64,000 nt of DNA from an uncultured Gemmatimonadaceae bacterium (GCA_963781585.1 CAWAGQ010000013.1:502597-566596); one strand, 5' to 3'; positions 460-63,607 are shown, numbered from the stretch's first letter. Notes: generated by a model not told the origin, from the sequence alone. Translations and numbers: made by a program.

Positions 460-757
460 GCGCGTTTCCTCCTTACGGTGATTCCAGACTGCTTGTGTTC
501 CACGATGCGGCACCCAGCGTCCTGCAAACCTCGGACCCGCCGGCGGTCTCCGGAGGAGGCCCGCCACCGCCGGACCGCGTGGCGAGTGCCAAAGAACGAC
601 CTCACGGTCTCCGCGAACGCGTTGTGCCTCTCGTCGCCTAGAAATGACGTGGGGCGGACTGGAACCGCAAGAGTGGACAAGCGCCGCGATCGCAGCGAAC
701 CAGGGACTGGCACCGACCAGGCGGCTGCCCGCTGATCGCTGAAACCTGTCCCTTCAC

Positions 758-1615
758 CTAACGCGGGCGGTCGCTCCCTTCCGCCGTCGGCTGATCGAAG
801 ATGTCGCGCATGACGGCTTCGAGTGCGGTGCGGAGCTCGGCGGCGGTGGCCCCCAGATGAAAACCCGACACCGCCACCGGACGCAGCAGTCCGGCAAGCG
901 TCTGGGGTCGTTCTGCGTCGGGCATGCCCGGAGGCTTCTGCGCCGCAACCCGCGTGCCCCGCGCGCCTTCGGTCACGACCACCCCCAACCGCTCGAGCTC
1001 TCCGTAGGCCCGTGCCACCGTCCCGGGCGCGATGTCGAGGTCGTCGGCCAGGCGGCGCACCGTCGGCAATCGATCACCCGCATTCAACTGGCCCGTCGCC
1101 ACGCCCTCCTGGATCCGCGCCACGATCTGTTCGTAGATCGAGCGATCCGAGGTGTCGTCCACCTGGATCTGAAACGGCGCGGGCAGGTCACCGCTCAACG
1201 CGGACCGCGCGCGCTCCGCCGTCACCCCGAGGGCGTTCAACACCTGCGCGGCGACCCCCTTCTCTTCGTCGAGCAGTCCGAGCAACAGATGCTCGGTGCC
1301 AACGTAGTTGTCGTTGCGTTCGCGCGCGGCAGACATCGCAAGCTCGAGGACTTTCTTCGCACGCGATGTATAGGGAAGATCAGGGCCGGTCGTCATTGTC
1401 CGGCCCTCCTTCACCGCTGCCAGAACCTCGCGACGGATCACGTCGGGCGTAGTCCCCAGCCGGGCGAGCAACCTGGTCGTCTCGTCGGACGGTTCGCGAG
1501 TCAATCCGAGCAGGAGGTGCTCGGTGCCGACGTACTCGTGGCGCTGGCGCTTCGCCTCAGCTCGCGCATGGACCAGCGCGACACGAACCCCCTCGGTGAA
1601 GTTGTAGGCGTTCAT
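758..1615 (-). CDS. Clp repeat N-terminal domain fused to GntR (YtrA-type) winged HTH
   Basis: Two ClpN repeats (FTEGVRVAL..HEYVGTEHLLLGL; YTSRAKKVLELA..YVGTEHLLLGLL) followed by IYEQIVARI..GDRLPTVRRLADDLDIAPGTVARAYGELERLG. Confidence 0.9.
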   Translation of the reverse strand: MNAYNFTEGVRVALVHARAEAKRQRHEYVGTEHLLLGLTREPSDETTRLLARLGTTPDVIRREVLAAVKEGRTMTTGPDLPYTSRAKKVLELAMSAARERNDNYVGTEHLLLGLLDEEKGVAAQVLNALGVTAERARSALSGDLPAPFQIQVDDTSDRSIYEQIVARIQEGVATGQLNAGDRLPTVRRLADDLDIAPGTVARAYGELERLGVVVTEGARGTRVAAQKPPGMPDAERPQTLAGLLRPVAVSGFHLGATAAELRTALEAVMRDIFDQPTAEGSDRPR

Positions 1616-1697
1616 CGTGCCAGTGACGCGTCTCCCCCAGCTGTAGCGCAGCATGACTGCCTCCGACGAAGTGCCTTCAGGACACTGGCTTGCAGCT

Positions 1698-1886: not shown

Positions 1887-2234
1887 TCACTTCTTCTTGC
1901 GACGCGCCCGGGGCTTCTTCTTCGCCGGCTCCTCGTTAGGCTCGAGCTGGATGTTGATGCTGCTGATCTCGTCCTTGAAGTGGTCGGCCAGCCGGCCGAT
2001 GAACGCCGACAGCAGTTGCCACTCCTTCGACGGTGGACGGCACCGCACCGTGACCAGCAGCGGACCGGGAGTCTGTTCCAGCCGCAGTTCGCCCGGATAC
2101 CGCTTGTGCTGGAGACGCACACCGCCGCGCACCTGCGTCACCTCAAACGAGCGGATGCGTCCCTCGGCGATCGCCGAGCGGAGCTCCGTCTGGAGAGTGG
2201 GACCGTGACGACCGACGATCTGCACGTGGACCAT
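1887..2234 (-). CDS. Hypothetical protein with basic C-terminus
   Basis: ORF with genome-typical codon usage; start uncertain (2234 or 2282). Confidence 0.6.
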   Translation of the reverse strand: MVHVQIVGRHGPTLQTELRSAIAEGRIRSFEVTQVRGGVRLQHKRYPGELRLEQTPGPLLVTVRCRPPSKEWQLLSAFIGRLADHFKDEISSINIQLEPNEEPAKKKPRARRKKK

Positions 2235-2369
2235 GACGCCCTCCGGAAGGTCGACGATGCGGCTGCCGCGAAGACGCTGCACGCGCCCGTCCGGCGCGCG
2301 ACCATAACGTTAGGCGTCCGGCGCCCCGCGCGCCATGCCCGATTTGCGCGGCGCGGGCGCGGGCGTGAA

Positions 2370-3209: not shown

Positions 3210-4448
3210 TCATTGGTCATCCGGGGAGCCCGGCAACAGGGGTTCGAGATCGGGCGTGGTGGCCCCATTCTCCGTGCAGAGCGCGAACTTCGTCTCCCCG
3301 GCGTGGTACATGCACACGCCGGCGTGCTCCCCTCGCTTGTCGAGGACGAAGAAGCGGATGTTGAAGTTCGGATTTCCCCTGGCATTGAGCAGGCGCGCTT
3401 CGATCGTGTTCGCCTTGATCCGCTTCAACGCATCCATGCCGGCGTCCTTCGGCGACATTCCCCGTCGCATGTTCTCGACGATGAGATACGAGCTGAGGTT
3501 GTAGAGATTCGCCTCGCCGCGTCCGGTGGAACCGGCCGCTCCCACGTCGTTGTCCACGTACAGGCCCGCGCCCAGGATGGGCGAGTCTCCCACCCGACCG
3601 GGAATCTTCCAGGCCAGTCCGCTGGTGGTGGTCGTGCCGCAGATGTCGCCGGTGGGACTGATGCCGTTGCAGTTGATCGTCCCCCAGAAGCTCCCTTCCG
3701 GAATCAGGCCGTCCCGCACCATCGACCTGCCCGCCGCCAGCGCCCGCTGCTCCCACGCCGCGTCGCGGACGCCCGACTCCGGCGTGCCTGGCCGTCCGGT
3801 CGGCGGCTTGGGGGGCTTTCGACCCGGTCCATTCGGGTCGAGCCAGTGTTCGGGGTCGATGCGGCGCCGCCACTCCAGCCACAGTTGTCGGGAACGCGCC
3901 GTGTTCAGGTCCGGCTCGATCGTGAACCCCATCTGGCGCGCGAAATCCTGCGCCCCCTGGCCCACCAGCAGATGGTGGTCGGTCATGTCCATGACCGCCT
4001 GGGCGACCAGCGACGGCGTCCGTACCCCTTCGATCGCCGCCACCGCCCCGGCCCGACGCCGGGGCCCGTGCATGCACGACGCGTCCAGCTGAATGACGCC
4101 GTCGGCGTTAGGCAGCGCGCCGTAGCCGATGCCGGTTTCCTCGGGATCGAGTTCCGGAATGTTGACGCCGGCAATCAGGGCGTCGAGCACATCCTTCCCT
4201 TCGGTGATGAGCCGGAAGGCGCGCTCGACCGCGTTCTCGGGACCGCCGTTCCTGAACTCGAAGCCACTGTAATCGGACACGACCACCGGCCGCACGGCAC
4301 TTCGAAGGAACAGTGCCGGCGCTCCGAGGCGCCTGCTGGCGGCGGCCGGGTCGCTGGTGATGCGTTGGAGCGCGTCGACGGGCGATCCCGCCGCGCCGGC
4401 AGCGAGCCCGGCCGCGGCAAAACGGACGAAATCGCGGCGATCTGGCAT
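3210..4448 (-). CDS. Tat-exported N(4)-(beta-N-acetylglucosaminyl)-L-asparaginase family Ntn-hydrolase
   Basis: RRDFV Tat signal; QLDASCMHG, W-G-T-I nucleophile site, TTTSGLAWKIPGRVGDSPILGAG, TGRGE. Confidence 0.92.
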   Translation of the reverse strand: MPDRRDFVRFAAAGLAAGAAGSPVDALQRITSDPAAASRRLGAPALFLRSAVRPVVVSDYSGFEFRNGGPENAVERAFRLITEGKDVLDALIAGVNIPELDPEETGIGYGALPNADGVIQLDASCMHGPRRRAGAVAAIEGVRTPSLVAQAVMDMTDHHLLVGQGAQDFARQMGFTIEPDLNTARSRQLWLEWRRRIDPEHWLDPNGPGRKPPKPPTGRPGTPESGVRDAAWEQRALAAGRSMVRDGLIPEGSFWGTINCNGISPTGDICGTTTTSGLAWKIPGRVGDSPILGAGLYVDNDVGAAGSTGRGEANLYNLSSYLIVENMRRGMSPKDAGMDALKRIKANTIEARLLNARGNPNFNIRFFVLDKRGEHAGVCMYHAGETKFALCTENGATTPDLEPLLPGSPDDQ

Positions 4449-4663: not shown

Positions 4664-5437
4664 ATGCCGAAATATCCCGCCCTTGCACCGCTCACGATGT
4701 CGGTTCCCGCCGCTGACGGACTCGTGCTCCGCGGGTCGCTCACGTATCCGCACGGTCTCACCGGCGCGCGGTATCCCCTGGCCGTGCTCGCCCACCAGTA
4801 TCCGTCGGCGCGCGAGAGCTACGCGCCGCTGGCCACCGACCTTCATGCGTTAGGCGTGGCGACGTTGTCGTTCGACCTGCGCGGTCACGGCGACTCGATC
4901 TGGACACCGACCGGCGTGCGGGTGGTCGACACACCGGCCCTGCCCACGATGGAAGCCTTCGCCACGGCCTTCATGGCGAGCTTCGCCAAAGCCGGCTTTG
5001 CGCACATCTCCGACGATATCGTGCGCGTATCGGCGTGGGGAATGACCCAGAATTACGTGGACCACGGTCGCGTGCTGCTGGTAGGATCGAGTGTGGGTGG
5101 CACCGGCGCCCTGCTGGCCGCCGCGAGTATCGGGAACGGGCTGCGTGGCGTGCTCACCTTCTGCGCGGCCGGCGCCCCGGCGCACGGATCCGATGCCGAC
5201 CAGCGAATCCGGCGCAACTGCGAGCGCCTCACCGTGCCTGTCCTGCTGGCGTCGTCGGAGAATGATCCGTTCGATGGCGCGGCCAACGCGCGAGCGTGGA
5301 GCGACAAGTTGTCCCACGTGCACGCCACCATCGTGAAGGGCGCGGATCACGGAATGGCCATCTACTACGCGGTTCGGAAGGAAGTCCAGGGCTTCGCGGC
5401 CCGCGCGCTGGGCATCAAGCGGCCGCGCGCGAAATAG
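4664..5437 (+). CDS. Alpha/beta hydrolase
   Basis: FDLRGHGDS, GSSVGG nucleophile elbow, C-terminal Asp and GADHG His. Confidence 0.85.
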   Translation: MPKYPALAPLTMSVPAADGLVLRGSLTYPHGLTGARYPLAVLAHQYPSARESYAPLATDLHALGVATLSFDLRGHGDSIWTPTGVRVVDTPALPTMEAFATAFMASFAKAGFAHISDDIVRVSAWGMTQNYVDHGRVLLVGSSVGGTGALLAAASIGNGLRGVLTFCAAGAPAHGSDADQRIRRNCERLTVPVLLASSENDPFDGAANARAWSDKLSHVHATIVKGADHGMAIYYAVRKEVQGFAARALGIKRPRAK

Positions 5438-6116: not shown

Positions 6117-7393
6117 TGGGCGCAGCCGGCGCCACGGTTGCGGCGGTTCCCTGGTATCGCACCATCACGCGGGCGCAGTGGCGGGCTCTGGTCGCGGCCA
6201 AGCTGGGGTGGATGCTGGACTCGATGGACTTCATGCTGTACGTGATGGCCGTCGGGCGGCTCAAGAGCTACTTCGGGTTCAGCGACGCCACGGCCGGATT
6301 GCTCGGCACCGTGACGCTGCTGACGTCGGCGGTAGGGGGAATTCTGTTCGGTCTGGTGGCCGACCGGATCGGGCGGGCCCGGGCGCTGATCGTGACCATC
6401 CTGATCTTCTCCGTATGCTCGTTAGGTGCGGCCACCTCGCAGGCGGTCTGGCAACTGATGCTCTGGCGTACGGTCCTCGGGATCGGGATGGGCGGCGAAT
6501 GGGCCTCGGGGGCGGTGCTGGTGAGCGAGACCTGGCCGGCGGAGCATCGCACCAAGGCGGTGAGCATCATGCAGTCGGGGTGGGCGCTGGGGTACATCCT
6601 TGCCGCCCTGATCGCCGCCCTGGTCCTCGACGTACTGCCGTTAGGCGATGCGGCGTGGCGATGGCTGTTCGTGGCAGGCGTGCTGCCGGCGCTGTTCACG
6701 CTCTGGATCCGTCGCCAGGTCGCCGAACCCGAGGCCTGGGTGCAGCGGCAATCCGGCAGGCGCCAGTCGGGCCGCCCGTTTGCGACGCTGTTCAGCCAGA
6801 CGTTCCGGCGCCGGACGGTGCTCGCCACCCTGCTCTCGGCGTTCGTCCAGTTCGCGAACTGGGGGCTCTTCTTCTGGCTCCCGGGTTTTCTGGCCAGGCC
6901 CCTGGAACAGGGCGGCGCGGGGATGTCGATCATCCGCTCCACGGGCTGGATCATTCCGGTGCAGATCGGCGCCTACATCGGTTACAACTCGTTCGGCTTC
7001 ATTTCCGACCGGCTCGGGCGCCGTCGCACGTTCATCGGCTATCTGGTCACGGCCGCGATCCTGGTGCCGCTCTACGGCCAGATGGCGCGGAGCCCGCTGG
7101 TGCTGATGGCGCTCGGCCCGCTGCTCGGCTTCGTCGGCTACGGCTACTTCAGCATGTTCGGATCGTTCCTGGCCGAGTTGTTCCCGACCGCGGTTCGCGC
7201 CACCGGCCAGGGACTCACCTACAACCTCGGACGCGGGCTGGGCGCGCTTGCGCCGTACACCATCGGCTACGTGGCCACCCTGCCTAACGTCGGGATCGGA
7301 TCCGCGCTCGGCCTCACCTCGGCCTTCTTCCTGGCCGGTGCCCTGCTGAGCCTGGCCTTTCCGGACCGGAGCCGACAGCCTCTGGATGACTGA
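6116..7393 (+). CDS. MFS transporter
   Basis: 12 TM pattern, GLVADRIGRAR motif A, GIGMGGEW. Confidence 0.92.
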   Translation: MGAAGATVAAVPWYRTITRAQWRALVAAKLGWMLDSMDFMLYVMAVGRLKSYFGFSDATAGLLGTVTLLTSAVGGILFGLVADRIGRARALIVTILIFSVCSLGAATSQAVWQLMLWRTVLGIGMGGEWASGAVLVSETWPAEHRTKAVSIMQSGWALGYILAALIAALVLDVLPLGDAAWRWLFVAGVLPALFTLWIRRQVAEPEAWVQRQSGRRQSGRPFATLFSQTFRRRTVLATLLSAFVQFANWGLFFWLPGFLARPLEQGGAGMSIIRSTGWIIPVQIGAYIGYNSFGFISDRLGRRRTFIGYLVTAAILVPLYGQMARSPLVLMALGPLLGFVGYGYFSMFGSFLAELFPTAVRATGQGLTYNLGRGLGALAPYTIGYVATLPNVGIGSALGLTSAFFLAGALLSLAFPDRSRQPLDD

Positions 7394-14539: not shown

Positions 14540-15688
14540 ATGTACTACCCAACGTCCCATCCCTGGGTTGAGAGCGAGACGCTCGGGGAGAACCTCAAAT
14601 CACGGGGCATCTCGCGGCGCGACTTTGTCGAGTTCTGCGGCCAGATGGTCGCGGTGCTCGGACTGAGCAACAGCCTGCTGCCGAAGGTCGCGCAGACCCT
14701 CGAGTCGATCAAGCGTCCCAGCGTCATCTGGCTCCAGCTTCAGGAATGCACCGGATGCGTGGAGAGCGTCCTGCGCACCTCCGACCCGACGATCGGAGAC
14801 CTGCTGCTCGACATCGTCTCGCTCGACTACCAGCACACGCTGATGGCGGGTGCGGGCGCGGCGGTCGAGAAGGCGCTGGCCGATTCGATGGCGGCGAACA
14901 AGGGGAAGTACGTGCTGATCGTCACCGGCTCGGTGCCGCTCAACGACAACGGGATCTATCTGACCATCGGCGGCCGGACGGGCAAGGAGATTCTGGAGGA
15001 GGCGGCGAAGGACGCGGCGGCGGTGATCGCGGTCGGGGCGTGCGCGCACTGGGGGAGCGTCCAGGCGGCGCGCCCGAATCCGACCGGGGCCGTTGGCGTC
15101 AACAAGATCGTGACCAACAAGCCGGTGCTGAACATCGCCGGATGTCCCCCGATCGCCGACGTGGTGACGGCGACGGTGGTGCACTTCCTGACCTTCGGGC
15201 GGCTTCCGGAGATGGACAGCGAGGGGCGGCCCCTGTTCGCATACGGCAAGCGGATCCACGATCAGTGCCCGCGCCGCGCGCACTTCGATGCCGGCCAGTA
15301 CGTCGAGGTGTTCGACGACGAGGCGGCCCGAAAGGGATGGTGCCTCTACAAGGTGGGGTGCAAGGGCCCGGCGACGTTCTCGCCCTGCCCGATCTTCCAG
15401 TGGAATTCACACACCAGCTGGCCGATCGGCGCGGGCCATCCGTGCCTCGGGTGCACCGAGCCGTTTTTCTGGGACACCATGGCGCCGTTCTACGGCCGGC
15501 TGCCTAACGTGGCCGGGATCGGGATCGAGAACAAGATCGACACGGTCGGGGCGACGCTGGCGCTGGGCGCGGTGGTCGGCGTGACGGCCCACGCGATCGC
15601 GACCGGCATCTATCAGATCCAGCATCGCAGGGCACAGGCAACCGCATCGGGCGGCGCGCCGCCGGCGGCCCCCACGAGGGAGGAATAG
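14540..15688 (+). CDS. [NiFe]-hydrogenase small subunit (group 1, Tat-exported, C-terminal TM anchor)
   Basis: SRRDFVEFC Tat signal; ECTGC, GCPP, HDQCPRR, WCLYKVGCKGP, GHPCLGC. Confidence 0.95.
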   Translation: MYYPTSHPWVESETLGENLKSRGISRRDFVEFCGQMVAVLGLSNSLLPKVAQTLESIKRPSVIWLQLQECTGCVESVLRTSDPTIGDLLLDIVSLDYQHTLMAGAGAAVEKALADSMAANKGKYVLIVTGSVPLNDNGIYLTIGGRTGKEILEEAAKDAAAVIAVGACAHWGSVQAARPNPTGAVGVNKIVTNKPVLNIAGCPPIADVVTATVVHFLTFGRLPEMDSEGRPLFAYGKRIHDQCPRRAHFDAGQYVEVFDDEAARKGWCLYKVGCKGPATFSPCPIFQWNSHTSWPIGAGHPCLGCTEPFFWDTMAPFYGRLPNVAGIGIENKIDTVGATLALGAVVGVTAHAIATGIYQIQHRRAQATASGGAPPAAPTREE

Positions 15689-18183: not shown

Positions 18184-18682
18184 CGGGCCGCGCACGGTGG
18201 TGCTGGGTCTGGGCAACCTGCTCATGGCCGACGACAGTGTCGGCCTGGCGGCGCTGGCGCGTCTGCAGGACGACTGGTTCATTCCCCCGACCGTGGAGCT
18301 GGTGGACGGCGGCACTTGGGGGATGAACCTGCTGCCGGTGGTGGAGTCGGCGCAGCGCCTGCTGATTCTCGATGCGATCGACAGCGGCGCCGTACCCGGC
18401 ACGCTGGCGCGGCTCGAGGGCGACGGCGTCCCGCGGTTTCTGGCACAGAAGCTGTCGCCGCACCAGATCGACCTCCGGGAGGTGCTGGCGCTGGCGCAGC
18501 TGCGCGGCACGCTGCCTCCCGAGCTCGTCGCGTTAGGCATCCAGCCGGCGCGGGTCGAGATGTCCACCGCGCTCAGTCCGGAGGTCGAAGCGGGCCTCGA
18601 CGAGCTGGTGAGCCAGGCCGCCGCCGCCCTGGTGGCGTGGGGGGTGTCGTGCTTTCCGCTCACGGAGCCGGCCCGTGCATGA
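18170..18682 (+). CDS. Hydrogenase maturation protease (HyaD/HybD family)
   Basis: VLGLGNLLMADDSVG, VDGGTWG, ILDAID, SPHQ. Confidence 0.92.
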   Translation: MAVRDGPRTVVLGLGNLLMADDSVGLAALARLQDDWFIPPTVELVDGGTWGMNLLPVVESAQRLLILDAIDSGAVPGTLARLEGDGVPRFLAQKLSPHQIDLREVLALAQLRGTLPPELVALGIQPARVEMSTALSPEVEAGLDELVSQAAAALVAWGVSCFPLTEPARA

Positions 18683-43957: not shown

Positions 43958-46930
<2,973 letters not shown>

Positions 46931-49695: not shown

Positions 49696-50963
49696 CGCAG
49701 AAGCGGATCGCCGTCCGCCACCCGCCTCCGCACGTCGCCGGCCGGCATGTTGACCAGCGCCAGGACCTGGCGCCGCTCCAGCGAGACCGGGCGTGCCACG
49801 AAGACCCGCAGCCAGCGTGCGGAGCGGTAGAGTTCCTGCGAGAGCATCGGCAGGTTGATCGCGCCCAGGATGCCTTCGCCGGTCAAGCGGCGCACCTGTC
49901 CGTCGCGACCGAGCACGGGCAGATCGAGATCGAGCATCTGGGTCTTCATCGGGTAGTCGAGCAGGAGTTCACCCGGCGCCAGCCCGAGTTCGCGCGCCAG
50001 CGCGTCTTCGGCGGCGAGGGTGAGGGTCCGGTCGGCCGCGAGCCACTCCGCCGCGTCGGTTTCCAGCTCCGCGCCGGGACACTCGAAGGCGCGCTTGTAC
50101 AGCCGGCGCTGGCGCAGGCCCTCCAGCAGCGGGGATGGGGCGCGCTGCTCCAGACGGTGCAACAACCCCTCGTCGCTGAACGCCACCAGATTCGCCGCGT
50201 CCAGCGCGCCCCGTGCGATCGCGTCCTCCACCAGCCGCTTGTACATCGCGGTGGCGCTGCGCACCGCATGATGCCAGTAGACGTTGCGGTACATCTGGTA
50301 CTTCGCGAAGAGCAGGGACTCGAGTGCGGAGAGGCCTTTTTCGGCGAGTCCGATCACGTCTGCGCCGGTCGCCGGGTCCGGGACGATGGTCAGCGAGTGG
50401 ATCAGGCGATCGACGTCGATTTCGCCGTAGGGGACACCGCACATGAACGCGTCGCGCTTGAGGTATTCGATCTTGTCGAGATCCAGCGAGCCCGAGATGA
50501 GCCCCTGGAGCGGGCTGGCCGCGGCGCCCCGGATCAGCGCCCAGATCTGCTCCGGGGCGCCGCGGCCGACGCGCTCCCGGAGCTGGGCGGCGACCTCTCC
50601 CTCGGAGAGGAGCGCCCGGGCCACGTCTTCATGATGCGGGGCGCCGATTTCCTCGAGGGCGTGCGAGAACGGATAGTGGCCGATGTCGTGGAGGAGTGCG
50701 GCCGTGCGGACCGTCACCACCTCGGCCTCGGGGAGCCGGGCCAGTGCACCGCGCCCCCCGAGCAGCGCCAATGTGCGCCCGGCGAGGTGGTACGTGCCTA
50801 ACGCGTGCTCGAAGCGGGTGTGGGTCGCGCCGGGATACACCAGGTGCGCCAGACCGAGCTGCCGCACGTAGCGCAACCGCTGGAACGGGCGGGTGTCGAC
50901 CAGGCGCAGGGCCAGGTCGTCGAGGCCGATGTTGTTCCAGAGCGGGTCGCGGATGATATCCAA
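49692..50963 (-). CDS. HD-domain phosphohydrolase (SAMHD1/YdhJ-like)
   Basis: FQRLRYVRQLG..YPGATHTRFEHALG, LLHDIGH.PFSH, MYRNVYWH. Confidence 0.92.
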   Translation of the reverse strand: MDIIRDPLWNNIGLDDLALRLVDTRPFQRLRYVRQLGLAHLVYPGATHTRFEHALGTYHLAGRTLALLGGRGALARLPEAEVVTVRTAALLHDIGHYPFSHALEEIGAPHHEDVARALLSEGEVAAQLRERVGRGAPEQIWALIRGAAASPLQGLISGSLDLDKIEYLKRDAFMCGVPYGEIDVDRLIHSLTIVPDPATGADVIGLAEKGLSALESLLFAKYQMYRNVYWHHAVRSATAMYKRLVEDAIARGALDAANLVAFSDEGLLHRLEQRAPSPLLEGLRQRRLYKRAFECPGAELETDAAEWLAADRTLTLAAEDALARELGLAPGELLLDYPMKTQMLDLDLPVLGRDGQVRRLTGEGILGAINLPMLSQELYRSARWLRVFVARPVSLERRQVLALVNMPAGDVRRRVADGDPLLR

Positions 50964-51042: not shown

Positions 51043-52665
51043 TCAACCTTTTGGCCCCGCCGTCACGATTGCCGGGTCCATCTTCCCGAACTTCTCGAAG
51101 TTCCGGCGAAACATCTCGGCAAGCTTCCGCGCCTGGGTATCGTAGGCCCCCGGATCACGCCACGTCTTGCGGGGAGTCAGCACCTCGGCCGGCACTCCCT
51201 GGACGTCGGTCGGGCTGGCCAGGCCGAAGATCGGATCCACCTCACGCGGCGTGCTGTCGAGCGCCCCGGAGAGGGCCGCGCGGACCATCGCCCGCGTATA
51301 GGCCAGCTTCATCCGAGCGCCGACGCCATAGGGCCCACCGCTCCATCCGGTGTTTACGAGCCAGACCCGTGACTGGTGCTTGTCGATGAGCTTCCCCAGC
51401 ATCTCGGCGTACTTCCACGGATGCCAGACCAGAAACACCGCGCCGAAGCACGAACTGAACGTCGCCTGCGGCTCGGTCACCCCGCGCTCCGTCCCCGCGA
51501 CCTTGGCCGTGTACCCGGACATGAAGTAGTACATCGCCTGCTCGCGCGTGAGGCGCGCGATCGGAGGCAGGACGCCGAAGGCATCGGCGGTGAGAAAGAC
51601 CACGTTGCGTGGATGGCCGCCCCGTCCGCTGGGCACGTGGTTGCGGATGTAGGGCAGGGGATACGACGCCCGCGTGTTCTCGGTGATCGTCTGATCCTCG
51701 AAGCGCACGCGCCGGGTGGCCGGATCGAGCGTCACGTTCTCGAGGATCGTACCGAACATCTCGGTGGTGGCGTAGATGTCGGGCTCCTGCTCGCGCGACA
51801 GGTTGATGACCTTTGCGTAGCAGCCTCCCTCGAAGTTGAACACGCCGCCGTCCGCCCACCCGTGCTCGTCGTCTCCGATCAGCGACCGCTCGGGATCGGC
51901 GGAGAGGGTGGTCTTCCCGGTCCCCGACAGGCCGAAGAAAAGCACGGTGTCGCCTTTCGGACCCACATTGGCCGAACAGTGCATGGACAGGACGCCGTCC
52001 TTCGGCATCAGGTAGTTCATGACCGTGAACATCGCCTTCTTCAATTCGCCGGCGTAGCGGGTTCCGCCGATCAGGATCATCCGTCGCGCGAGGTGAAGAA
52101 CGATGAACGTGCCGGTCCGCGTGCCATGGCGCTCGGGCGTGGCCTGGAACTCGGGGGCGTGGAGGACCACGAAGTTCGGCTGAAACGACGCCAGCGCATC
52201 GACGTCGGGCCGGATGAACATGTTGCGCACGAACGCGGCATGCCACGCGTTAGGCAACACGTAGCGCACGCTCAACCGGTGCCGCGGATCGGCCCCGCAG
52301 AACAGGTCCTGGACGAACAGGTCGCTCGCGCCGTTCAGATAGACGCGCACGTCGGCCAGCAGCCGGTCGAAGGACGCTTCGGCAAGCGGCTGGTTCACCT
52401 TCCCCCAATCCACGACGCCGTCGCTCGCCGTCTCACGCACGAGGAACTTGTCGTTGGGCGAGCGCCCGGTGTGCGGTGCCGTGACGGCGACGAATGGCCC
52501 CATGTCGGCCAGCACCCCTTCGTCGCGCCGTACCGCCTGCTCGATCAGGGCCGCCGCCACGAGATTCCAGTGTATGGTGCCCGACGGGTCGAGCCCCTGG
52601 ACGTCGAGTCCCTGCCGCTGCTCCGATTCGAAAGCGGCAGCGGCGGGAGGTGTTTGAGTCGCCAT
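51043..52665 (-). CDS. pckA: Phosphoenolpyruvate carboxykinase (ATP)
   Basis: TGRSPNDK, YAGELKK, FFGLSGTGKTTLS, LIGDDEHGW, NFEGGCYAK. Confidence 0.97.
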   Translation of the reverse strand: MATQTPPAAAAFESEQRQGLDVQGLDPSGTIHWNLVAAALIEQAVRRDEGVLADMGPFVAVTAPHTGRSPNDKFLVRETASDGVVDWGKVNQPLAEASFDRLLADVRVYLNGASDLFVQDLFCGADPRHRLSVRYVLPNAWHAAFVRNMFIRPDVDALASFQPNFVVLHAPEFQATPERHGTRTGTFIVLHLARRMILIGGTRYAGELKKAMFTVMNYLMPKDGVLSMHCSANVGPKGDTVLFFGLSGTGKTTLSADPERSLIGDDEHGWADGGVFNFEGGCYAKVINLSREQEPDIYATTEMFGTILENVTLDPATRRVRFEDQTITENTRASYPLPYIRNHVPSGRGGHPRNVVFLTADAFGVLPPIARLTREQAMYYFMSGYTAKVAGTERGVTEPQATFSSCFGAVFLVWHPWKYAEMLGKLIDKHQSRVWLVNTGWSGGPYGVGARMKLAYTRAMVRAALSGALDSTPREVDPIFGLASPTDVQGVPAEVLTPRKTWRDPGAYDTQARKLAEMFRRNFEKFGKMDPAIVTAGPKG

Positions 52666-55137: not shown

Positions 55138-56583
55138 TTCTTTCACCACCGGCTCGGGGTAGGCCTTGCCCAGCGCTTCGATGTACCGCGAGCGGAGCGC
55201 CTTCAGGCCGTCGAACTCGTGCTGCACGAGCTTCCGATAGTCCTCGTGGGTGGCGAACGTGACGAGGAGCGCCGCCATGGACTGCGCATCCACGACGAAT
55301 CCGTGGTGGCCGACCTCGGTGGTCGCGTCGGCGAGCATCTCGTACGTATGGTTGCCGCCGTTGGACGAGTACGATGAGAAGCCGAGTCCCGGAACCGCGC
55401 TCGAGACGCTGCCGGTTTCCTCGAAGCCCTGCGGCTTGCCGGGCGCGTCGGCCGCCCGGGTGGCGCCGAACTGCTTCATGAACGCGAATCCCACCTCGCC
55501 TAACGATCCGAGCGCGATGCCGTCGCGGGCGCCCGGTTCGCGCGCGATCTGCACCTTGGTGCCGGTGGCCAGCGCGGCGGCGCGGGCCGCGTTGTCCACC
55601 ATCTGCGCTTCCTGGGCCAGGTACACCTCATCCGGATAACGGATGTAGAACTCGGCGACCGCCCGATCGGGCACCACGTTAGGCGCCTTGCCGCCTTCGG
55701 TGATGATGCCCTGGATGCGCTCCTCGGGGCGCAGGTTTTTGCGCAGGGCGTCGATGTTCTCGAACAGGTGGATCACCGCGGTGAGGGCGTCCCGTCCTTC
55801 CCATGCCGTCATCTGGTGCGCCGGCGCTCCGGAGAACGTATAGCGCGCGAAGTCGATGTTCAGGCAGCAGGTGCCGAATCCCGCCGCCGGACGGGTCGTG
55901 GCGGTGGACGAGTGCGAGCGGACGATGATGTCGGCGCCCGTGAAGGCACCGGCATTGAACATCACGGTCTTCACTGAGGGCGGAAGGATCTCTTCGGCCG
56001 GCGTGCCATACACGGTCACCGTCCCCGGCGTGTGAGTCCGGGTGAGGAACTCGGACACTGCCACCGCGGCCGCCAACCCCACCGGCCCCTGGGCGCTGTG
56101 CTGGTCGCCGTGGAAGTCGCCGGTGGTTCCCCGCAGCGCGTCGTATTCGACGATCACGCCGAGGTTGGGACCGGGCGTACCCTTGCGATAGTGCGCCACG
56201 AAGGCGGTCGCGAATCCGGCGACGCCCGAATCCACGTCGAAGCCGTGGGCCCGCAGGTAGTCCATGACGATCTTCACCGACCGGAACTCCTTGAAACCCG
56301 TTTCCGGGTGTCGCGTGATATCGTCGGCCATCGCGAGGAGCTCCTGGTCCATGAGCGCCTTGGCGCGCGCCGCCACCGCGTCCCGAGCCGGATCGGGCGC
56401 CGTGAGACGGGTGACCAGATGGGGCAGATCGAGCGACTGCTCGAGCGCGTTCATCCGCGCCACGACGTCGGCAGCGGCCGAGCGTTCGGTGGGCGTCTCC
56501 TGCGCGGAAAGAAAACCACCGGCACAGAACAGAACCGGCAGCGCGGCGCGCGCGATGCGGACAGGCAGCGAGGGAGCGGTCAT
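55132..56583 (-). CDS. Secreted M20D-family amidohydrolase (AbgB-like)
   Basis: PETGFKEF, EYDAL, GTPAEE, GAPAH, GGKAPNVVPD; signal peptide. Confidence 0.85.
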   Translation of the reverse strand: MTAPSLPVRIARAALPVLFCAGGFLSAQETPTERSAAADVVARMNALEQSLDLPHLVTRLTAPDPARDAVAARAKALMDQELLAMADDITRHPETGFKEFRSVKIVMDYLRAHGFDVDSGVAGFATAFVAHYRKGTPGPNLGVIVEYDALRGTTGDFHGDQHSAQGPVGLAAAVAVSEFLTRTHTPGTVTVYGTPAEEILPPSVKTVMFNAGAFTGADIIVRSHSSTATTRPAAGFGTCCLNIDFARYTFSGAPAHQMTAWEGRDALTAVIHLFENIDALRKNLRPEERIQGIITEGGKAPNVVPDRAVAEFYIRYPDEVYLAQEAQMVDNAARAAALATGTKVQIAREPGARDGIALGSLGEVGFAFMKQFGATRAADAPGKPQGFEETGSVSSAVPGLGFSSYSSNGGNHTYEMLADATTEVGHHGFVVDAQSMAALLVTFATHEDYRKLVQHEFDGLKALRSRYIEALGKAYPEPVVKEP

Positions 56584-57989: not shown

Positions 57990-59309
57990 ATGCGCATTTG
58001 GAAGATCGTGTGCGCGCTGGCCACCACGGCCGGCGTCACATGGGCACAACAGACCGGATCGCCAACGGCCACCCGGCCGGCGTCGCGCGCGAGCGCCGCC
58101 TACCCGGATACCCTGCGCCTCACGCGCAGCGCGGCTGTGGCCGCGGCGCTGGCAAACAACCCGCAGCTGGAGGTCGCCCGCGAGCAGACGTCGCAGGCCC
58201 GGGCGCGCCGCGTGCAGGCGGTGGCCATTCCCGACCCCACGCTCGTCGCGTCGCTCGATCAGCAACCAGGATTCCTCAGGCTGGGGCAGGCCGGCGAGAA
58301 GAACGTGGAGATGGACCTCTCGGTCCCGTTCCCCGACAAGTTCCGGCTGTACAACCGGATAGCGACCGCCGACGTGGAGTCGTCCGACTACCAGTTCACG
58401 TTGCTGCGCCAGCAGGTGGCCGCCGATGTGGCGCGTGCCTACGACGACCTGCTGCTCACGCGACGTCATCGCCGCGACCTGCTCGACGGCCGCGCCCTGG
58501 CCGACTCGTTCCTCACCCGGGCGCAGGCCCGGTTCAACGCCGGCACGGTGGCCAAGCTCGACGTCATCAAGGCGCGGGTCGACGTGGCCCAGGCCGACAA
58601 TGACCTGATCGCCAACGAGCGGGACATCGCCAACGCCGAATCCGCCCTCAACCGGCTGCTCGGACGCTCGTTAGGTGCCTCGATCATCGAGCTCGATTCG
58701 CTCGACGTCCCGCGCGGATTGCCCGATCTGGGCGTGCTCGAGAGCACGGCGATGACCGCGCGCCCCGAGTTGGGCGACCTCATGTCGCAGCGCAACGGGG
58801 CCCGTGCCAACACCGCGCTGGCCCGCGAGTTCTGGCTGCCGGACCTCTTCGTCGGTGCCACGCGTGACTACAACGCCCCGGGCAGCCAGGCCTACTCGGC
58901 CGGCATCGGACTCGCCTTCCCGCTCTTCTTCTGGCAGCACACGCGGGGCGAGATCGCCGAGTCCCAGCACCGCGAGCGCGAACTCGCCGCCGCCTATCAG
59001 GACCTCCGCGCCGAGGTTGGACAGGACGTGCGGCAGGCATACGCCAGCGCCGAGACGGCGCTCCGACAGGCGCTCTACATCCGCGACGAGCTGCTTCCGG
59101 CCACCCAGGAGGCCTTTCGCGTGGCGTCGGTGAGCTACGGACTGGGTGGTTCTTCGGCTCTGGAAGTGCTCGACGCGCGGCGCACACTCCTCGATGCCCA
59201 GAGCCAGTATGCCGAGGCCCTCGCCAATGCGAACTCGGCGCGCTCCGACCTGGAACGCGCGGTGGGCCGTCCCCTCGACTCGTTCCCAACCGGAGATGCC
59301 CGTGAGTAG
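57990..59309 (+). CDS. TolC/CzcC-family outer membrane efflux protein
   Basis: Signal peptide, ALANNPQL, two OEP repeats (RFNAG..KLDV; SYGLG..ALEVLDA). Confidence 0.92.
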   Translation: MRIWKIVCALATTAGVTWAQQTGSPTATRPASRASAAYPDTLRLTRSAAVAAALANNPQLEVAREQTSQARARRVQAVAIPDPTLVASLDQQPGFLRLGQAGEKNVEMDLSVPFPDKFRLYNRIATADVESSDYQFTLLRQQVAADVARAYDDLLLTRRHRRDLLDGRALADSFLTRAQARFNAGTVAKLDVIKARVDVAQADNDLIANERDIANAESALNRLLGRSLGASIIELDSLDVPRGLPDLGVLESTAMTARPELGDLMSQRNGARANTALAREFWLPDLFVGATRDYNAPGSQAYSAGIGLAFPLFFWQHTRGEIAESQHRERELAAAYQDLRAEVGQDVRQAYASAETALRQALYIRDELLPATQEAFRVASVSYGLGGSSALEVLDARRTLLDAQSQYAEALANANSARSDLERAVGRPLDSFPTGDARE

Positions 59310-60480: not shown

Positions 60481-63400
60481 GCCATTCGTCCCTGCCGACG
60501 TCGGCGGACCAGGCACCCAGCGGCCCGTCGCTGATTCACCGCATCGTCACCGCGGCGCTGGGACAGCCGCTGCTGGTGCTCATCTTCTCGCTGGTCGTGG
60601 TCGGAGCGGGCGTCTGGTCGTTCACGCGGCTGCCGGTGGATGCCTACCCCGACATCTCCCCGCCCATCGTCGACATCATCACGCAGTGGCCCGGCCATGC
60701 CGCCGAGGAGGTCGAGCGCCTGATCACGGTGCCGTTGGAGAACGAGATGAACGGTGTGGAACGGCTGCGGGTGGAGCGGTCGATCTCGCTGTTCGGGTTG
60801 TCCGACGTGTCGCTGACGTTCGTTGATCGAACAGACCCCTACTTCGCGCGCCAGCGCGTGTTCGAGCGGATCGCCGACGCCGAGTTGCCGGACGGCGTCT
60901 CGCCGTCGGTGGAGCCGTTGATGGCGCCCTCGGGCCTCATCTACCGCTACGTGCTGGACAGCCCCGACCGCTCGGCGATGGACCTGAAGGTCATCAACGA
61001 CTGGGAGCTCGCCAAGGCCTACAAGGGCGTGCCGGGTGTGGCCGAGATGTCGGGCATTGGCGGGGAGACCATGGAATACCAGGTGGTGGTCGATCCGATC
61101 AAGCTGGCCGGCGCCGGTCTGGGCATCGGCGACCTCGTCTCGACGTTAGGCGCCAATAACAGCAACGCGGGCGGCGGCTTCTACGCCGAAGGGGGGCAGT
61201 TCTTCTATGTCCGCGGCCTGGGTCGCGTCGAGACGCTCGACGACATCGGGAAGGTGGTCCTCAAGGTCGACAACGGGAAGCCGGTCACGGTAAAGGACAT
61301 CGGGCAGGTGGAGATCGGCCACGCCCCCCGGCTGGGTCAGTTCGGGTTCAATGAGCGCGATGATGCTGTGGAGGGCATCGTGCTGATGCGCTCCGGCGAG
61401 CAGGCCCAGACGGTCCTGAAACGGGTCGAGGCGAAGACCGCCGAGCTCAATCGCTCGGTCCTGCCGCCCGACGTGAAGATCCGGCCCTACTACGACCGCA
61501 GCGACCTGATCGCGCTCACGACGCGCACCGTGGAGGACAACCTGTTGCGCGGAATCGTGCTGGTGATCGTCGTCCTGATCTTCTTCCTGTACAATGTGCG
61601 TACCGGGTTGATTGTGGCGGCCACCATTCCGCTCTCGCTCCTGTTCGCCTTCATCATCCTCGACCTGCGAAACATTCCGGCGAACCTGTTGTCAATCGGT
61701 GCCATCGATTTCGGCATCCTGGTGGATGGCGGAGTGGTGATGGTGGAGAACATCTACCGTCAGCTGGCGCGGCGACACGGCACGACGTACTCGATTCGCG
61801 AAGTCATCGCCACCGCCGCCGCCGAAGTGGACCGCCCGATCGTGTACGCGGTGGCGGTGATCGTCGCCGGATTCCTGCCCATTTACGTGCTCTCGGGACC
61901 GTCGGGACGGCTCTTCACGCCCATGGCCGACACGATGATCTACGCGTTGATCGGGTCGCTGGTGCTCACCCTCACGCTGCTGCCCGTGCTGTGCATGCGG
62001 TTGCTCCGACGCGGCGTGCGCGAACGGAGGAATCCGGTCTTCGAGCGCGTGCGGTCGTGGTACGAGCGCGGACTCGACTGGAGCCTGGTTCACCGGCGCA
62101 TCGTCATCGGGGGATCGGTGCTCCTCGCTGGGCTTGCCCTCGTGCTGGTGACCACGGTCGGGGCCGAGTTCATGCCCCATCTGGACGAAGGCGCGCTCTG
62201 GGTGCGCGCCACGATGCCGTACACCATTTCGCTCGAAGAATCGCAGAAGATCGTCCCGCAGATCCGCGCCATCCTCCGTTCGTTCCCGGAAGTCACCGTG
62301 GTGGGGTCCGAGCACGGACGGCCGGATGACGGCACCGATGCCACCGGCTTCTTCAACGCGGAGTTCTTCGTCGGGCTCAAGCCGTATTCGGAATGGAAAG
62401 GGCCGTATCACCGCAAACCGGATCTGATCGAGGCCGTTGACAAGAAGCTTTCCGCCTTCCCGGGAATCACGTTCAACTACACACAGCCCGCTGAAGACAA
62501 CGTCAACGAGGTGGAGACCGGCTTGAAGAGTTCTCTCGACGTCAAGCTCTTCGGCTCCGACCTGAAGGTGCTCCAGACCAAGGGATTGCAGATCAAGCAC
62601 GTCCTGGACGGTGTGCGTGGCATCACGCACGTCACGCTGGTGCAGGAGCTCGGGCAGCCCAGTCTCACCGTGACCGCGGACCGCGAGAAACTCGCCCGGT
62701 ACGGGCTCAATGTGGAGGATGTGAACGGCCTGATCGAAGCAGCGGTAGGTGGTGCGGCGGCGACGCAGGTGGTCCAGGGAGAGCGGCTGTTCGATCTGGT
62801 GGTGCGCCTGTCGCCGCAATACCGGGAAACGCCGGAGGCGATCGGGAATATTCTGCTCCCGACGCCGGTCGGCGATCAGGTTCCGCTGCGGACCGTGGCC
62901 CGCCTGGAGTTGAGCAACGGCGCGTCGTTCATCTACCGGCAGAACAACGCGCGATTCATCGGCATTCAGTACTCGGTGGAAGGACGCGATCTGGCAGGCG
63001 CGGTCCGCGACGCGCAGGCACAGGTGGCGCGAACCGTCTCGTTGCCGCAGGGATACCGCACGGTCTGGGGGGGCGAGTTCGAGGAGTACACGGCGTCGCG
63101 TCCCAGCTCCAACTGGTGCTCCCGATTACGCTGGGTCTCATCTTCCTGCTCCTGTTCGCCCTCTATCACAACTTCAAGTTTCCGTTGATCACGGTGGTGG
63201 GAGTGCTGCTGTCGGCGCCGATCGGGGGCATCATCGTCCTGGCGCTGACCGGCACGCCCTTCTCGGTGTCGTCGGGGATCGGCTTTCTGGCACTCTTCGG
63301 CGTGTCGGTCCAGACGGCCGTGGTCTACATCTCGTACGCCAACGAATTGCGGCTTGCGGGACGGGGCATCCATGACGCCACGCGCGAGGCAGCCATTCTC

Positions 63401-63607
63401 CGGCTGCGACCCATCATGATGACGGCCTTGGTTGCCGCGTTAGGCCTGCTCCCGGCCGCGCTATCTACCGGTGTGGGGTCGGACTCGCAGAAGCCGTTCG
63501 CGATGGTCATCGTGGGCGGCCTGTTCTCGCGCCTTCTGATCAGCGTCTTCCTCATGCCGGTGCTGTATCTGGTGGCGGCCAGGGAACACGATCACCTCAA
63601 GGTGTAG
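60477..63607 (+). pseudogene. CzcA/CusA heavy-metal RND permease with one frameshift near 63100 (pseudogene or sequence error)
   Basis: LPVDAYPDI, GAIDFGILVDG, EFMPHLDEG in the first frame; RLRPIMMTA continues in another frame to 63607. Confidence 0.85.

Follow-up and report, generated by a model that had tools for sequence, protein, structure and literature searches.

The question raised by the 64-kb window, that is, the whole stretch of Gemmatimonadaceae DNA analysed here (64,000 nucleotides), is why one octamer, CGTTAGGC, recurs along it so often, and what might read it. The word is not palindromic. The original prediction counted 23 exact copies, all of which were recovered with their coordinates and strands; 100 dinucleotide-preserving shuffles of the window held 0.94 copies on average and 3 at most, and none of the 100 reached 23. 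The seven one-mismatch copies with an intact GTTAGG core were also recovered (7/7), bringing GTTAGG to 30 occurrences (23 + 7) against 6.57 in the shuffles; four of the seven are CGTTAGGT and one is TGTTAGGC. Regarding reading frames, the claim that the word overrides codon bias holds: ten of the 23 copies lie in the sense frame xCG-TTA-GGC and eight in the antisense frame xxG-CCT-AAC-G; the other five comprise one antisense xGC-CTA-ACG, one supplying two convergent stops (40302-40309) and three outside the gene calls. The supply of stop codons, also claimed, is borne out by this convergent copy and by the near copies at 756 and 24663, both of which give TAG stops. The exact copies are as follows:

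1934..1941, plus strand: antisense xxG-CCT-AAC-G in the ORF at 1887-2282 (minus), without Pfam hit
2308..2315, plus strand: outside gene calls
4106..4113, plus strand: antisense CCT-AAC in the asparaginase-family gene at 3210-4448 (minus)
4848..4855, plus strand: sense xCG-TTA-GGC in the hydrolase gene at 4664-5437 (plus)
6639..6646, plus strand: sense TTA-GGC in the MFS transporter gene at 6029-7393 (plus)
7282..7289, minus strand: antisense CCT-AAC in the same MFS transporter gene, 6029-7393 (plus)
15502..15509, minus strand: antisense CCT-AAC in the NiFe hydrogenase small subunit gene at 14426-15688 (plus)
16953..16960, plus strand: sense TTA-GGC in the NiFe hydrogenase large subunit gene at 15692-17407 (plus)
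18531..18538, plus strand: sense TTA-GGC in the hydrogenase maturation protease gene at 18164-18682 (plus)
19878..19885, plus strand: sense TTA-GGC in hypF, 19532-21979 (plus)
20554..20561, minus strand: antisense CCT-AAC in hypF, 19532-21979 (plus)
23432..23439, plus strand: sense TTA-GGC in hypD, 22096-23610 (plus)
25790..25797, minus strand: antisense CCT-AAC in the DUF5924 gene at 25167-26495 (plus), the last copy before a word-free island
40302..40309, minus strand: both convergent stops, TAA of 39306-40307 (plus) and TAG of 40304-42043 (minus)
42986..42993, minus strand: outside gene calls
44942..44949, minus strand: sense xCG-TTA-GGC in uvrA, 43958-46930 (minus)
46841..46848, plus strand: antisense xGC-CTA-ACG in uvrA, 43958-46930 (minus)
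50796..50803, minus strand: sense TTA-GGC in the HD-domain gene at 49692-50963 (minus)
52248..52255, plus strand: antisense CCT-AAC in the PEP carboxykinase gene at 51043-52665 (minus)
55498..55505, minus strand: sense TTA-GGC in the M20-like peptidase gene at 55132-56829 (minus)
55677..55684, plus strand: antisense CCT-AAC in the same M20-like peptidase gene, 55132-56829 (minus), 179 bp from the copy at 55498
61144..61151, plus strand: sense TTA-GGC in the AcrB-family gene at 60477-63188 (plus)
63438..63445, plus strand: outside gene calls

The one-mismatch copies are:

756..763, minus strand: CGTTAGGT, whose TAG is the stop of 758-1654 (minus)
6420..6427, plus strand: CGTTAGGT, sense TTA-GGT in the MFS gene at 6029-7393 (plus)
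22278..22285, plus strand: CGTTAGGG, in hypD
24663..24670, plus strand: TGTTAGGC, whose TAG is the stop of 23607-24668 (plus)
27704..27711, plus strand: AGTTAGGC, within a CRISPR spacer
39467..39474, minus strand: CGTTAGGT, antisense in 39306-40307 (plus)
58669..58676, plus strand: CGTTAGGT, sense TTA-GGT in the outer-membrane efflux gene at 57990-59309 (plus)

As for the whole genome of this soil bacterium, it contains 1,442 exact copies of CGTTAGGC against 44.3 expected from an order-2 Markov model, a 32.5-fold enrichment, and no other octamer comes close, the other top octamers being overlaps of CGTTAGGC itself. The enrichment also stands when codon usage is preserved, with 1,010 copies observed in genes compared with 46.6 on average and 59 at most over 25 synonymous-codon shuffles of the 3,542 called genes (21.7 times). 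The word is hyper-abundant against codon bias: about half of all TTA codons of the genome (663/1,291) are inside CGTTAGGC, and, of the sites able to encode it, the word fills 15% of those for x(NCG)-Leu-Gly and 31% of those for Pro-Asn-(Gnn). Of the 1,010 copies in genes, 663 read xCG-UUA-GGC in the sense frame, and 730 of the 863 word-bearing genes have a single copy; antisense frames are enriched 11-13 times, and 103 copies supply stop codons. The two strands carry 724 and 718 copies, in agreement with the predicted lack of strong strand skew; this balance, together with the antisense enrichment and the stop codons, indicates that CGTTAGGC is read as DNA and not as RNA. The density is even over all 17 contigs (0.19-0.34 per kb), and orientation tracks GC skew weakly, with 193:144 and 124:153 copies in 50-kb windows of |skew| above 0.02 (rho 0.25). 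Finally, the tolerated variants, all pyrimidine transitions, give the profile YGTYAGGY for a putative reader; C or T is tolerated at the last position, and the variant CGTCAGGC is also enriched.

The spacing of the copies was compared with a null in which the occupied sites were drawn randomly, 300 times, among 10,338 synonymous-compatible sites. Nearest gaps shorter than 100 bp numbered 1 against 21.7 expected, those below 250 bp 7 against 53.4, and those below 500 bp 28 against 100.5, the lowest of the 300 draws being 74. This deficit held for same-strand pairs below 250 bp (5 against 34.4), for opposite-strand pairs (2 against 19.3) and for sense-antisense pairs (2 against 19.6); for pairs in different genes 250-500 bp apart it was complete (0 against 8.5). 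Genome-wide, only 20 of 1,425 gaps measure 200 bp or less, including the 179-bp pair at 55498/55677. Within about 0.5 kb, the copies avoid one another, regardless of strand, coding sense or gene, which argues against a repair bias acting site by site and against a signal read in RNA; one copy per segment suffices.

The word is also under purifying conservation. In the alignment with the genome of a sister species of the same genus, G070 (344 kb, 87.5% identity), CGTTAGGC was intact in 63 of 81 cases, compared with 1,046 of 2,751 control 8-mers in the same phase (38%; p = 4e-13), and the third-codon positions within it were 93-99% identical, against 79% in the controls. At the uvrA site at 44942, the orthologous codons carry CGTTAGGC in 14 sequences, which between them cover each of the six word-rich clades of the UvrA tree; in word-poor relatives the site mostly reads CTC-GGC. 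The longest gap between copies in the window has the following features:

25798..40301, no strand assigned: word-free island of 14.5 kb with 0 exact CGTTAGGC and lower G+C (0.61-0.65 at 32-40 kb)

Within it lie a CRISPR array of about 44 repeats (26554 to about 29200) and, from cas1 (29683-30564) through cas3 (35453-38230), cas genes of type I-E; the stretch is probably acquired DNA. Across the genome, 10-kb windows below 62% G+C have a density of 0.03 per kb and those at 68-70% one of 0.35 per kb; CGTTAGGC is absent from acquired DNA.

Regarding its taxonomic range, 53 of the 151 Gemmatimonadaceae genomes are word-rich, 88 are poor and 10 are intermediate, and none of the 92 genomes of the phylum outside the family is word-rich. 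Abundance varies 60-fold within one genus; the trait is all-or-nothing and patchy among relatives. In the four word-poor relatives examined for an alternative word, none was found (4/4), that is, there are no 'dialects' of the Neisseriaceae type.

As for the genes that could connect the word with DNA uptake, the genome has the uptake gene set: it encodes ComEC, and comEA lies immediately upstream of pilB-pilT-pilC (C14:143982-149194). ComEC is found in 139 and PilT in all 151 of the family genomes, rich and poor alike, hence neither discriminates; eight high-completeness genomes, belonging to three genera, lack ComEC, and every one of them is word-poor. The Pfam profile of the Neisseria DUS receptor, a ComP-type minor pilin (ComP_DUS, PF16732), had no match here, and none in any of the 14 control genomes. 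A FimT-like minor pilin is present in both rich and poor genomes and is not co-distributed with CGTTAGGC, and a search for papers joining Gemmatimonadetes with 'DNA uptake sequence' returned none.

Taken together, we tentatively read CGTTAGGC as a tag of native DNA akin to the DNA uptake sequence (DUS), recognised as double-stranded DNA by a putative uptake reader, an account whose chances we place somewhat short of even. A sequence-specific reader, present in some Gemmatimonadaceae lineages and absent in others, would recognise the word in either orientation; the type IV pilus/ComEA/ComEC route would then favour word-bearing fragments, as it does for DUS in Neisseriaceae and for the uptake signal sequence (USS) in Pasteurellaceae. 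Kin DNA, once taken up, would recombine into the chromosome, and word-bearing alleles could spread by molecular drive, whether or not they bring a fitness benefit, until there was about one copy per fragment. From this pattern we infer that the reader is part of the uptake machinery and that the driving force is biased uptake. The failure of the candidate reader genes to discriminate rich from poor genomes counts against the uptake reading, as do the near absence of close pairs, which sets the word apart from USS, and the lack of an alternative word in the four poor relatives; the identity of the word with an integron element, described below, is not predicted by an uptake model alone. The original prediction had preferred a DUS/HIP1-like or protein-binding signal to Chi or KOPS; its uptake-like half is strengthened by the way the copies are spaced and conserved and by their absence from acquired DNA, and the half that invoked HIP1 or modification is not, given the lack of a palindrome, the distribution of Vsr (10/53 rich and 17/88 poor genomes) and the avoidance of close pairs. 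The preference over Chi/KOPS is upheld by the strand totals and the weak dependence on GC skew.

The integron element is the attC site, whose core consensus is GTTRRRY, in the R' box. In a sister family, f2, real attC sites have CGTTAGGC as their 3' R' box, with the C that precedes GTTAGGC; these sites are hairpins of about 105-124 nt (folding energies of -70 to -87 kcal/mol) that follow one another on a single strand at intervals of 0.3-1.3 kb. The motif had been called uncharacterised: this stands for its use as a genome-wide word, of which nothing was found in print, and fails for the 8-mer itself, which is the R' crossover box of attC sites in integrons of the phylum. Accordingly, an integron-type tyrosine recombinase or a relative might read the word, and the copies would be half-sites (R boxes) that serve or suffer recombination. 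They could act as secondary 'attG' landing sites, for instance, or be bound by an IntI-like protein that has been domesticated; copies would keep apart, since two near sites could recombine. The tolerated C/T at the last position fits the Y of GTTRRRY, an integron integrase above the curated cut-off occurs in 88 of the 151 family genomes, including this one (C7:185885-186829), and cassette integration at genomic attG sites has been published, as cited in the available part of PMC12614218. Nevertheless, this explanation is unlikely: IntI does not track the word (32/53 rich and 49/88 poor genomes; Spearman rho 0.07), and of the three genomes of the richest genus, G082 and G130 show nothing better than E 1e-23 and G008 only a partial match (1.1e-49); all 53 f2 genomes searched are word-poor, despite their word-using integrons; at most 17 of the 1,442 copies here have an attC-like hairpin partner by a loose hairpin test, leaving at least 1,425 without; insertion sites in housekeeping genes would be expected to be harmful rather than favoured; and the enriched CGTCAGGC breaks the invariant GTT of the attC core. 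A variant of the uptake reading, in which the tag was borrowed from integrons, is rather improbable as well: a DNA receptor in some Gemmatimonadaceae would prefer DNA with the attC R' box, biasing natural transformation towards kin DNA and towards cassettes that IntI could file from the incoming single strands, and this bias would have left its trace in the thousands of copies within genes.

A chromosome-organising or other double-strand DNA-binding protein, involved in nucleoid structuring, loading or silencing-exclusion and needing sites every few kb but not closer, would account for the orientation-free spacing rule, the even density over the 17 contigs, the conservation and the absence from low-G+C acquired DNA; a core housekeeping role is unexpected for a trait found in 53 and missing from 88 of 151 genomes and varying 60-fold within a genus, no candidate was found, and no nucleoid protein is known to us to require an exact 8-mer at such density, so that its probability is low, if appreciable. 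Much less probable is a Chi-like role, in which the word would restrain a helicase-nuclease, shield native DNA and promote recombination: a non-palindromic octamer, one per 4 kb, concentrated in native DNA and weakly correlated in orientation with GC skew would suit it, but RecC gave no match and PDDEXK_1 only weak ones (ORFs of 557 and 576 aa) in this 93.5% complete genome, the orientation bias is about 55-57% only, and a polar signal should spare opposite-orientation pairs, which avoid each other equally strongly. Moreover, the excess is 21-32-fold and against codon bias; that of Chi is far below this. Sequence-specific methylation coupled to very-short-patch-type mismatch repair, or another mutational bias per site with a HIP1-like origin, is very improbable; its attraction lies in a C5 methyltransferase and a Vsr endonuclease sharing one 790-aa open frame (C7:477177-478451) and in the tolerated variants being all pyrimidine transitions. 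Against it, a per-site bias cannot produce mutual avoidance, the word is not a palindrome, the Dcm-Vsr gene is itself inside a 24.6-kb word-free stretch, and Vsr shows no association with CGTTAGGC, occurring in 28 of 151 genomes (10/53 rich, 17/88 poor and 1/10 intermediate, classes assigned by hand for this tally) and in none of the three genomes of the richest genus. As for a signal at the RNA or translation level, in Streptomyces bldA-dependent TTA codons regulate expression, and a rare UUA codon in a fixed context could do so here, in keeping with the prevalent sense frame and the single copy of most word-bearing genes; the antisense enrichment, the sense-antisense avoidance (also seen across genes), the 103 stop-codon copies and the copies outside genes all oppose it, and the strand-independent spacing refutes it for practical purposes, leaving it barely credible.

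Returning to the uptake tag, what is new here is the spacing rule, the variant profile, the conservation, the taxonomic range, the integron link and the missing co-distribution. To our knowledge, sequence-specific self tags for uptake are known from only two families, both of host-associated Proteobacteria, and for one of these the receptor is still unknown; the same type of genomic footprint now appears in a widespread soil phylum, where on/off contrasts between related genera, even within a genus, make the reader findable by association. If it is an uptake component, uptake specificity extends to soil bacteria and may link transformation with cassette capture; an integron-borrowed tag, if true, would tie the two together, a connection that, as far as we know, has been described for no bacterium. 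If it is otherwise, a new kind of genome-wide DNA signal claims half of the genome's rarest leucine codon.

Compared with known systems, CGTTAGGC resembles Chi (RecBCD/AddAB) and KOPS/AIMS in being an over-represented non-palindromic octamer of native DNA, present about once per 4 kb; unlike them, it has no marked replication-linked polarity, its opposite-orientation copies avoid each other, RecC was not found, and its excess is much larger and against codon usage. HIP1 (GCGATCGC) is a palindrome linked to methyltransferases; CGTTAGGC shares its hyper-abundance as an octamer but is non-palindromic and without Vsr association. The HIP1 of cyanobacteria is 15- to 300-fold over-represented, under selection and of unknown function, according to the available part of PMC5861425. 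With attC, the word shares its place at the end of real f2 hairpins and the tolerated C/T end; unlike attC, which forms an imperfect R''/L''...L'/R' hairpin of about 55-140 nt ending in the core, it lacks a hairpin partner in at least 1,425 of 1,442 cases, lies in frame in housekeeping genes and is not co-distributed with IntI, and integron-bearing genomes can be word-poor.

The comparison with USS and DUS has two sides. Unlike these, CGTTAGGC belongs to another phylum and is an attC box, its role in uptake is putative, and the trait switches on and off among genera of one family, with no variant word in 4/4 poor relatives; the frequent, terminator-like close inverted pairs of Neisseria and Haemophilus are not seen (20/1,425 gaps of 200 bp or less). 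In the available part of PMC7811141, 23% of USS in H. influenzae are within 100 bp of another, unlike the close pairs of CGTTAGGC, which are almost absent, and two USS within 100 bp give no extra uptake. According to the same portion of that source (PMC7811141), USS are scarcer than expected in segments of recent acquisition and have a relatively even distribution, which is what molecular drive would produce. Like USS and DUS, CGTTAGGC is a short non-palindromic word with hundreds to thousands of copies on both strands, lying within genes in few preferred frames, scarce in acquired DNA and conserved among close relatives.

As for its abundance, the word CGTTAGGC was counted 23 times in the window (C13:502597-566596 of the source genome G000), with each copy at the position and on the strand originally listed for it, compared with a mean of 0.94 and a maximum of 3 in 100 dinucleotide-preserving shuffles. 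All seven near copies that keep the GTTAGG core unbroken were found as well, and GTTAGG itself occurs 30 times in the window against 6.57 in the shuffles. Over the whole source genome G000 (5.72 Mb in 17 contigs, 67% G+C), the 724 and 718 copies on the two strands amount to a 32.5-fold excess over the order-2 Markov expectation of 44.3, and the density lies between 0.19 and 0.34 per kb on each contig. The remaining top over-represented octamers under this model are overlaps of the word, and the sequence flanking the copies carries near-zero information; the word is therefore a sharply bounded 8-mer. Under a maximal-order Markov model, the list is headed by an octamer unrelated to the word profile, AGGCCAAA/TTTGGCCT (331 vs 148.8).

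Genes of G000 were called with a crude, purpose-made caller that missed short genes and returned 3,542 genes over 4.40 Mb; 1,010 copies of the word fall inside them.

Reading frames of the word inside called genes of G000
xCG-TTA-GGC, sense, 663 copies
xxG-CCT-AAC-G, antisense, 243 copies
xGC-CTA-ACG, antisense, 62 copies
xxC-GTT-AGG-C, sense, 42 copies

The original claim that the word overrides codon bias survives a codon-preserving control: 25 within-gene synonymous shuffles averaged 46.6 copies and never exceeded 59, hence a 21.7-fold excess, and this null is conservative because the TTA codons created by the word itself are recycled. TTA accounts for 0.9% of leucine codons; the word contains 663 of the 1,291 TTA codons and fills 15% of the encodable tripeptide sites in frame xCG-TTA-GGC and 31% in xxG-CCT-AAC-G. 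Another 103 copies provide a stop codon: 58 do so as CGT-TAG-GC and 45 as GCC-TAA-CG, the second form making up 45 of the 278 TAA stops. The proposal that a single copy furnishes both stops of a convergent gene pair was borne out by one of these copies, at 40302-40309 of the window, where a short-chain dehydrogenase gene and a MscS-like channel gene converge and their stop codons overlap within the word.

Regarding the taxonomic range, 151 genomes of the Gemmatimonadaceae were classed as rich (40 copies per Mb or more), poor (<15 per Mb) or intermediate, with thresholds set after the bimodal histogram had been seen; 53 were rich (up to 1,327 per Mb), 88 poor and 10 intermediate, a tally that, like the other family tallies given here, includes the unpublished G007, G033, G034 and G133, on which alone no claim depends. 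None of 92 genomes of the phylum beyond the family (including the unpublished G197 and G227) was rich, the maximum being 26 per Mb. Summed over the family genomes, the strand totals were 43,809:43,642; same-strand runs in very rich genomes, considered as a sign of polarity, proved to be an artefact of match listing, the fetched DNA having 27:23 and 23:17 copies by strand. Abundance can differ within a genus: in g49, two genomes (G048 and G149, at about 950 per Mb) have 3,896 and 4,141 copies and a third (G107, at 13 per Mb) has 66. Considered as a recent natural knockout, the word-poor G107 could be aligned with G048 over 5.1 kb (78.6% identity), with just two informative sites, both ordinary CTC codons, which would fit either loss or original absence of the word.

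A UvrA tree of 66 rows (6 of 71 loci were left out, with an open frame <700 aa) had 55 labelled rows, of which 14 were rich and 41 poor. The rich rows all lie within a single well-supported clade of 43; the label changes six times, at least three of these changes being forced by supported branches, and none of 500 shuffles matched this. At the uvrA codon site of the window copy at 44942, xCG-TTA-GGC is found in 14 sequences representing all six rich clades, while poor sequences have chiefly CGCTCGGC (7) or CGATCGGC (4); the pattern is compatible with an early origin followed by recurrent loss, but also with recurrent gain where the site is favourable or with exchange between rich lineages. In 100 kb from each of four poor genomes, no further hyper-abundant 7- to 9-mer turned up, the best candidates for such a dialect being a REP-like palindromic repeat (G041) and Tyr-Tyr codon pairs (G002). 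The former, in the word-poor G041 (C1:1000001-1100000, L051-L055), contains CAATCATGT(C/T)AATCCTGTC and occurs about a dozen times in that 100 kb, often as inverted pairs.

Some departures from the word are tolerated. Four of the 24 single-letter variants exceed the codon-shuffle expectation in G000: CGTTAGGT (9.4-fold overall; 91 vs 3.2 in the main frame), TGTTAGGC (4.2-fold), CGTCAGGC (3.0-fold, 1,078 vs 361, and up in all five open frames) and CGTTATGC (2.2-fold, 141 vs 63.7), the last being a transversion. Synonymous one-step precursors of the word are mildly depleted (0.4-0.85). In samples of 96-400 kb from rich and poor genomes, the excess of variants is confined to the rich ones: CGTTAGGT reaches 8-12 times expectation there and is absent from the poor ones, and CGTCAGGC exceeds the Markov expectation 1.5- to 2.7-fold in four rich genomes, against 31 observed and 32.6 expected in four poor genomes pooled. 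The preferred profile is thus YGTYAGGY, with C, T and C favoured at the ambiguous positions; CGTTATGC falls outside it.

Conservation was assessed on 344 kb of G000 aligned to G070, a genome of the same genus, with 87.5% identity. The word was intact in G070 for 63 of 81 copies, compared with 1,046 of 2,751 control 8-mers of matching codon phase (38%; p = 4e-13), with identities of 99, 95 and 93% at its third-codon positions (79% for the controls). Copies that differ between the two genomes have mainly been replaced by CGTTAGGT (9 cases) or CGTCAGGC (5 cases). In genus g49, G048 and G149 have 11 of 14 aligned copies in common at 83.6% identity.

The distribution along the genome follows base composition, with 0.03, 0.17, 0.24 and 0.35 copies per kb in 10-kb windows of <62%, 62-66%, 66-68% and 68-70% G+C, respectively; density climbs with G+C although the word is more A+T-rich than the genome. 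In the window, the genes that carry it are ordinary (hydrogenase and maturation genes, uvrA, PEP carboxykinase, transporters), and the sole long word-free stretch, 25798-40301, is of lower G+C and contains a CRISPR array and a type I-E cas operon.

Features of the word-free stretch (window positions)
26554 to ~29200, CRISPR array, ~44 repeats, 28-29-nt unit, 61-bp period
29683-38230, type I-E cas genes, in the order cas1, cas6e-like, cas5, cas7 (CT1975), cse2, cse1, cas3

One CRISPR spacer, at ~27694-27716, includes the near-word AGTTAGGC. Elsewhere in G000, contigs C5 and C8 are a little lower in G+C and include long stretches without the word, and they share near-identical pilin genes (C5:319862-320245 / C8:324679-325062 and C5:203291-203743 / C8:211014-211436); the assembly, with an estimated contamination of 7.2%, may mix two related strains or hold a large duplication.

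A new observation is that the copies avoid one another. The null was built from 10,338 synonymous-compatible sites, from which the same occupied number per frame class was drawn randomly 300 times.

Nearest-neighbour gaps between copies in G000
<100 bp, observed 1, expected 21.7, lowest draw 11
<250 bp, observed 7, expected 53.4, lowest draw 29
<500 bp, observed 28, expected 100.5, lowest draw 74
<1,000 bp, observed 105, expected 183, lowest draw 153

Avoidance is equal for every type of pair: below 250 bp there are 5 same-strand pairs (34.4 expected), 2 opposite-strand pairs (19.3) and 2 sense-antisense pairs (19.6), and at 250-500 bp no pair lies in different genes (8.5 expected). Since the deficit is alike for all of them, one copy per ~0.5 kb of duplex DNA satisfies whatever favours the word, irrespective of orientation, coding sense and gene borders.

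This spacing bears on several readings of the word. A repair or mutation bias of the HIP1 kind has a low probability, because a bias acting per site alone cannot yield mutual avoidance; as for its possible enzymes, Vsr/Dcm was discarded as the driver, given that Vsr, found in 28 of 151 family genomes (classes assigned by hand), does not co-distribute with the word (10 of 53 rich, 17 of 88 poor, 1 of 10 intermediate). The sole C5 methyltransferase and Vsr of G000 form one 790-aa open frame (C7:477177-478451) inside a 24.6-kb word-free stretch (C7:457886-482458), and this is probably a mobile module. A signal acting at the RNA level is likewise improbable, for one read in codons could not make copies avoid one another either. 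A Chi-type signal is polar and would spare pairs in opposite orientation, yet these too are deficient, so that little weight is given to it; RecC was looked for in G000 and not found. Binding by a chromosome-organising protein, another reading of the word, is considered unlikely, though less so than these three.

A recombinase-linked role of the integron kind is rated as unlikely to the same degree as the chromosome-protein reading. In poor genomes of the sister family f2, the word is present in few copies, clustered on one strand and 0.3-1.3 kb apart, and at loci in G207 (L061-L063), G211 (L064) and G244 (L065) most of the clustered copies end hairpins (six of six on contig C27 of G207). These hairpins are ~105-124 nt long, start with GCCTAACA, finish with (C)CGTTAGGC and have folding energies of -70 to -87 kcal/mol; they are highly uniform, with GCCTAACAAGCGCATGAAGC at the start and CCGTTAGGC at the end, and are attC sites of the kind typical for cassette arrays, so the 8-mer is the R' crossover box of the phylum's cassettes. 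The word also conforms to the general attC core consensus, GTTRRRY. The copies spread over G000 are not such sites: no more than 17 of the 1,442 pass a lenient test for an attC-like hairpin, and at least one of these, at 19878 of the window within hypF, is probably a false positive. The integrase IntI is above the curated cut-off in 88 of 151 family genomes; with presence set at E <1e-80, it was rejected as the reader, since it occurs in 32 rich genomes out of 53 and 49 poor ones out of 88 (rho 0.07), with no co-distribution. In the richest genus, the search gave nothing beyond E 1e-23 in G082 and G130 and a partial match in G008, and f2 carries integrons that use the word yet is without the genome-wide word. 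The integron integrase is therefore not the reader of the word in any simple sense. A crude scan adjoining intI in six family genomes and G000 gave few or no attC sites. Still, exact identity over eight letters is unlikely by chance, so some link between the word and the attC box probably exists. One paper reports that single-stranded DNA entering via natural transformation is a source of cassettes, which chromosomal integrons excise and recruit from it (PMC12614218); this makes it conceivable that the link runs through DNA uptake.

As for the uptake machinery itself, G000 has ComEC, and its comEA lies immediately upstream of pilB, pilT and pilC (C14:143982-149194), encoding a 186-aa product with one helix-hairpin-helix domain and an Arg/Pro-rich tail; this gene order suggests a type IV pilus that would serve DNA uptake. 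Neither ComEC (139 of 151 family genomes) nor PilT (151 of 151) discriminates rich from poor genomes, both being near-universal; of the 12 genomes without ComEC, eight are of high completeness, belong to three genera and are all poor, and four are <81% complete, two of them rich. Searches with the ComP_DUS model gave no match in G000, and none in any control genome either. Among 11 pilin-like ORFs of G000, the FimT/GspH-like minor pilin at C7:29700-30143 was compared across the family and set aside as receptor: it is found in 61 of 151 genomes (E <=1e-6), including poor ones such as G028, G084 and G147, and was not found in rich ones such as G008 and G027.

In conclusion, the word is real, read as DNA and actively maintained; that it is an uptake tag is a plausible reading and the favoured one, put forward tentatively. 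A literature search for the genome-wide word found no description of it, the text matches to the word or its 7-mer, among those listed, being primers and constructs, and a search for Gemmatimonadetes together with "DNA uptake sequence" found nothing. According to PMC7811141, uptake sequences are scarce in new DNA and relatively even under molecular drive, with no gain from two close copies, and the word in G000 is similarly scarce in probably acquired DNA and evenly spread, with close pairs avoided; unlike it, the USS of H. influenzae has abundant close pairs, according to the same source. Among the systems compared, the uptake sequences of the Neisseriaceae (DUS) and Pasteurellaceae (USS) are those whose behaviour is closest to that of the word.
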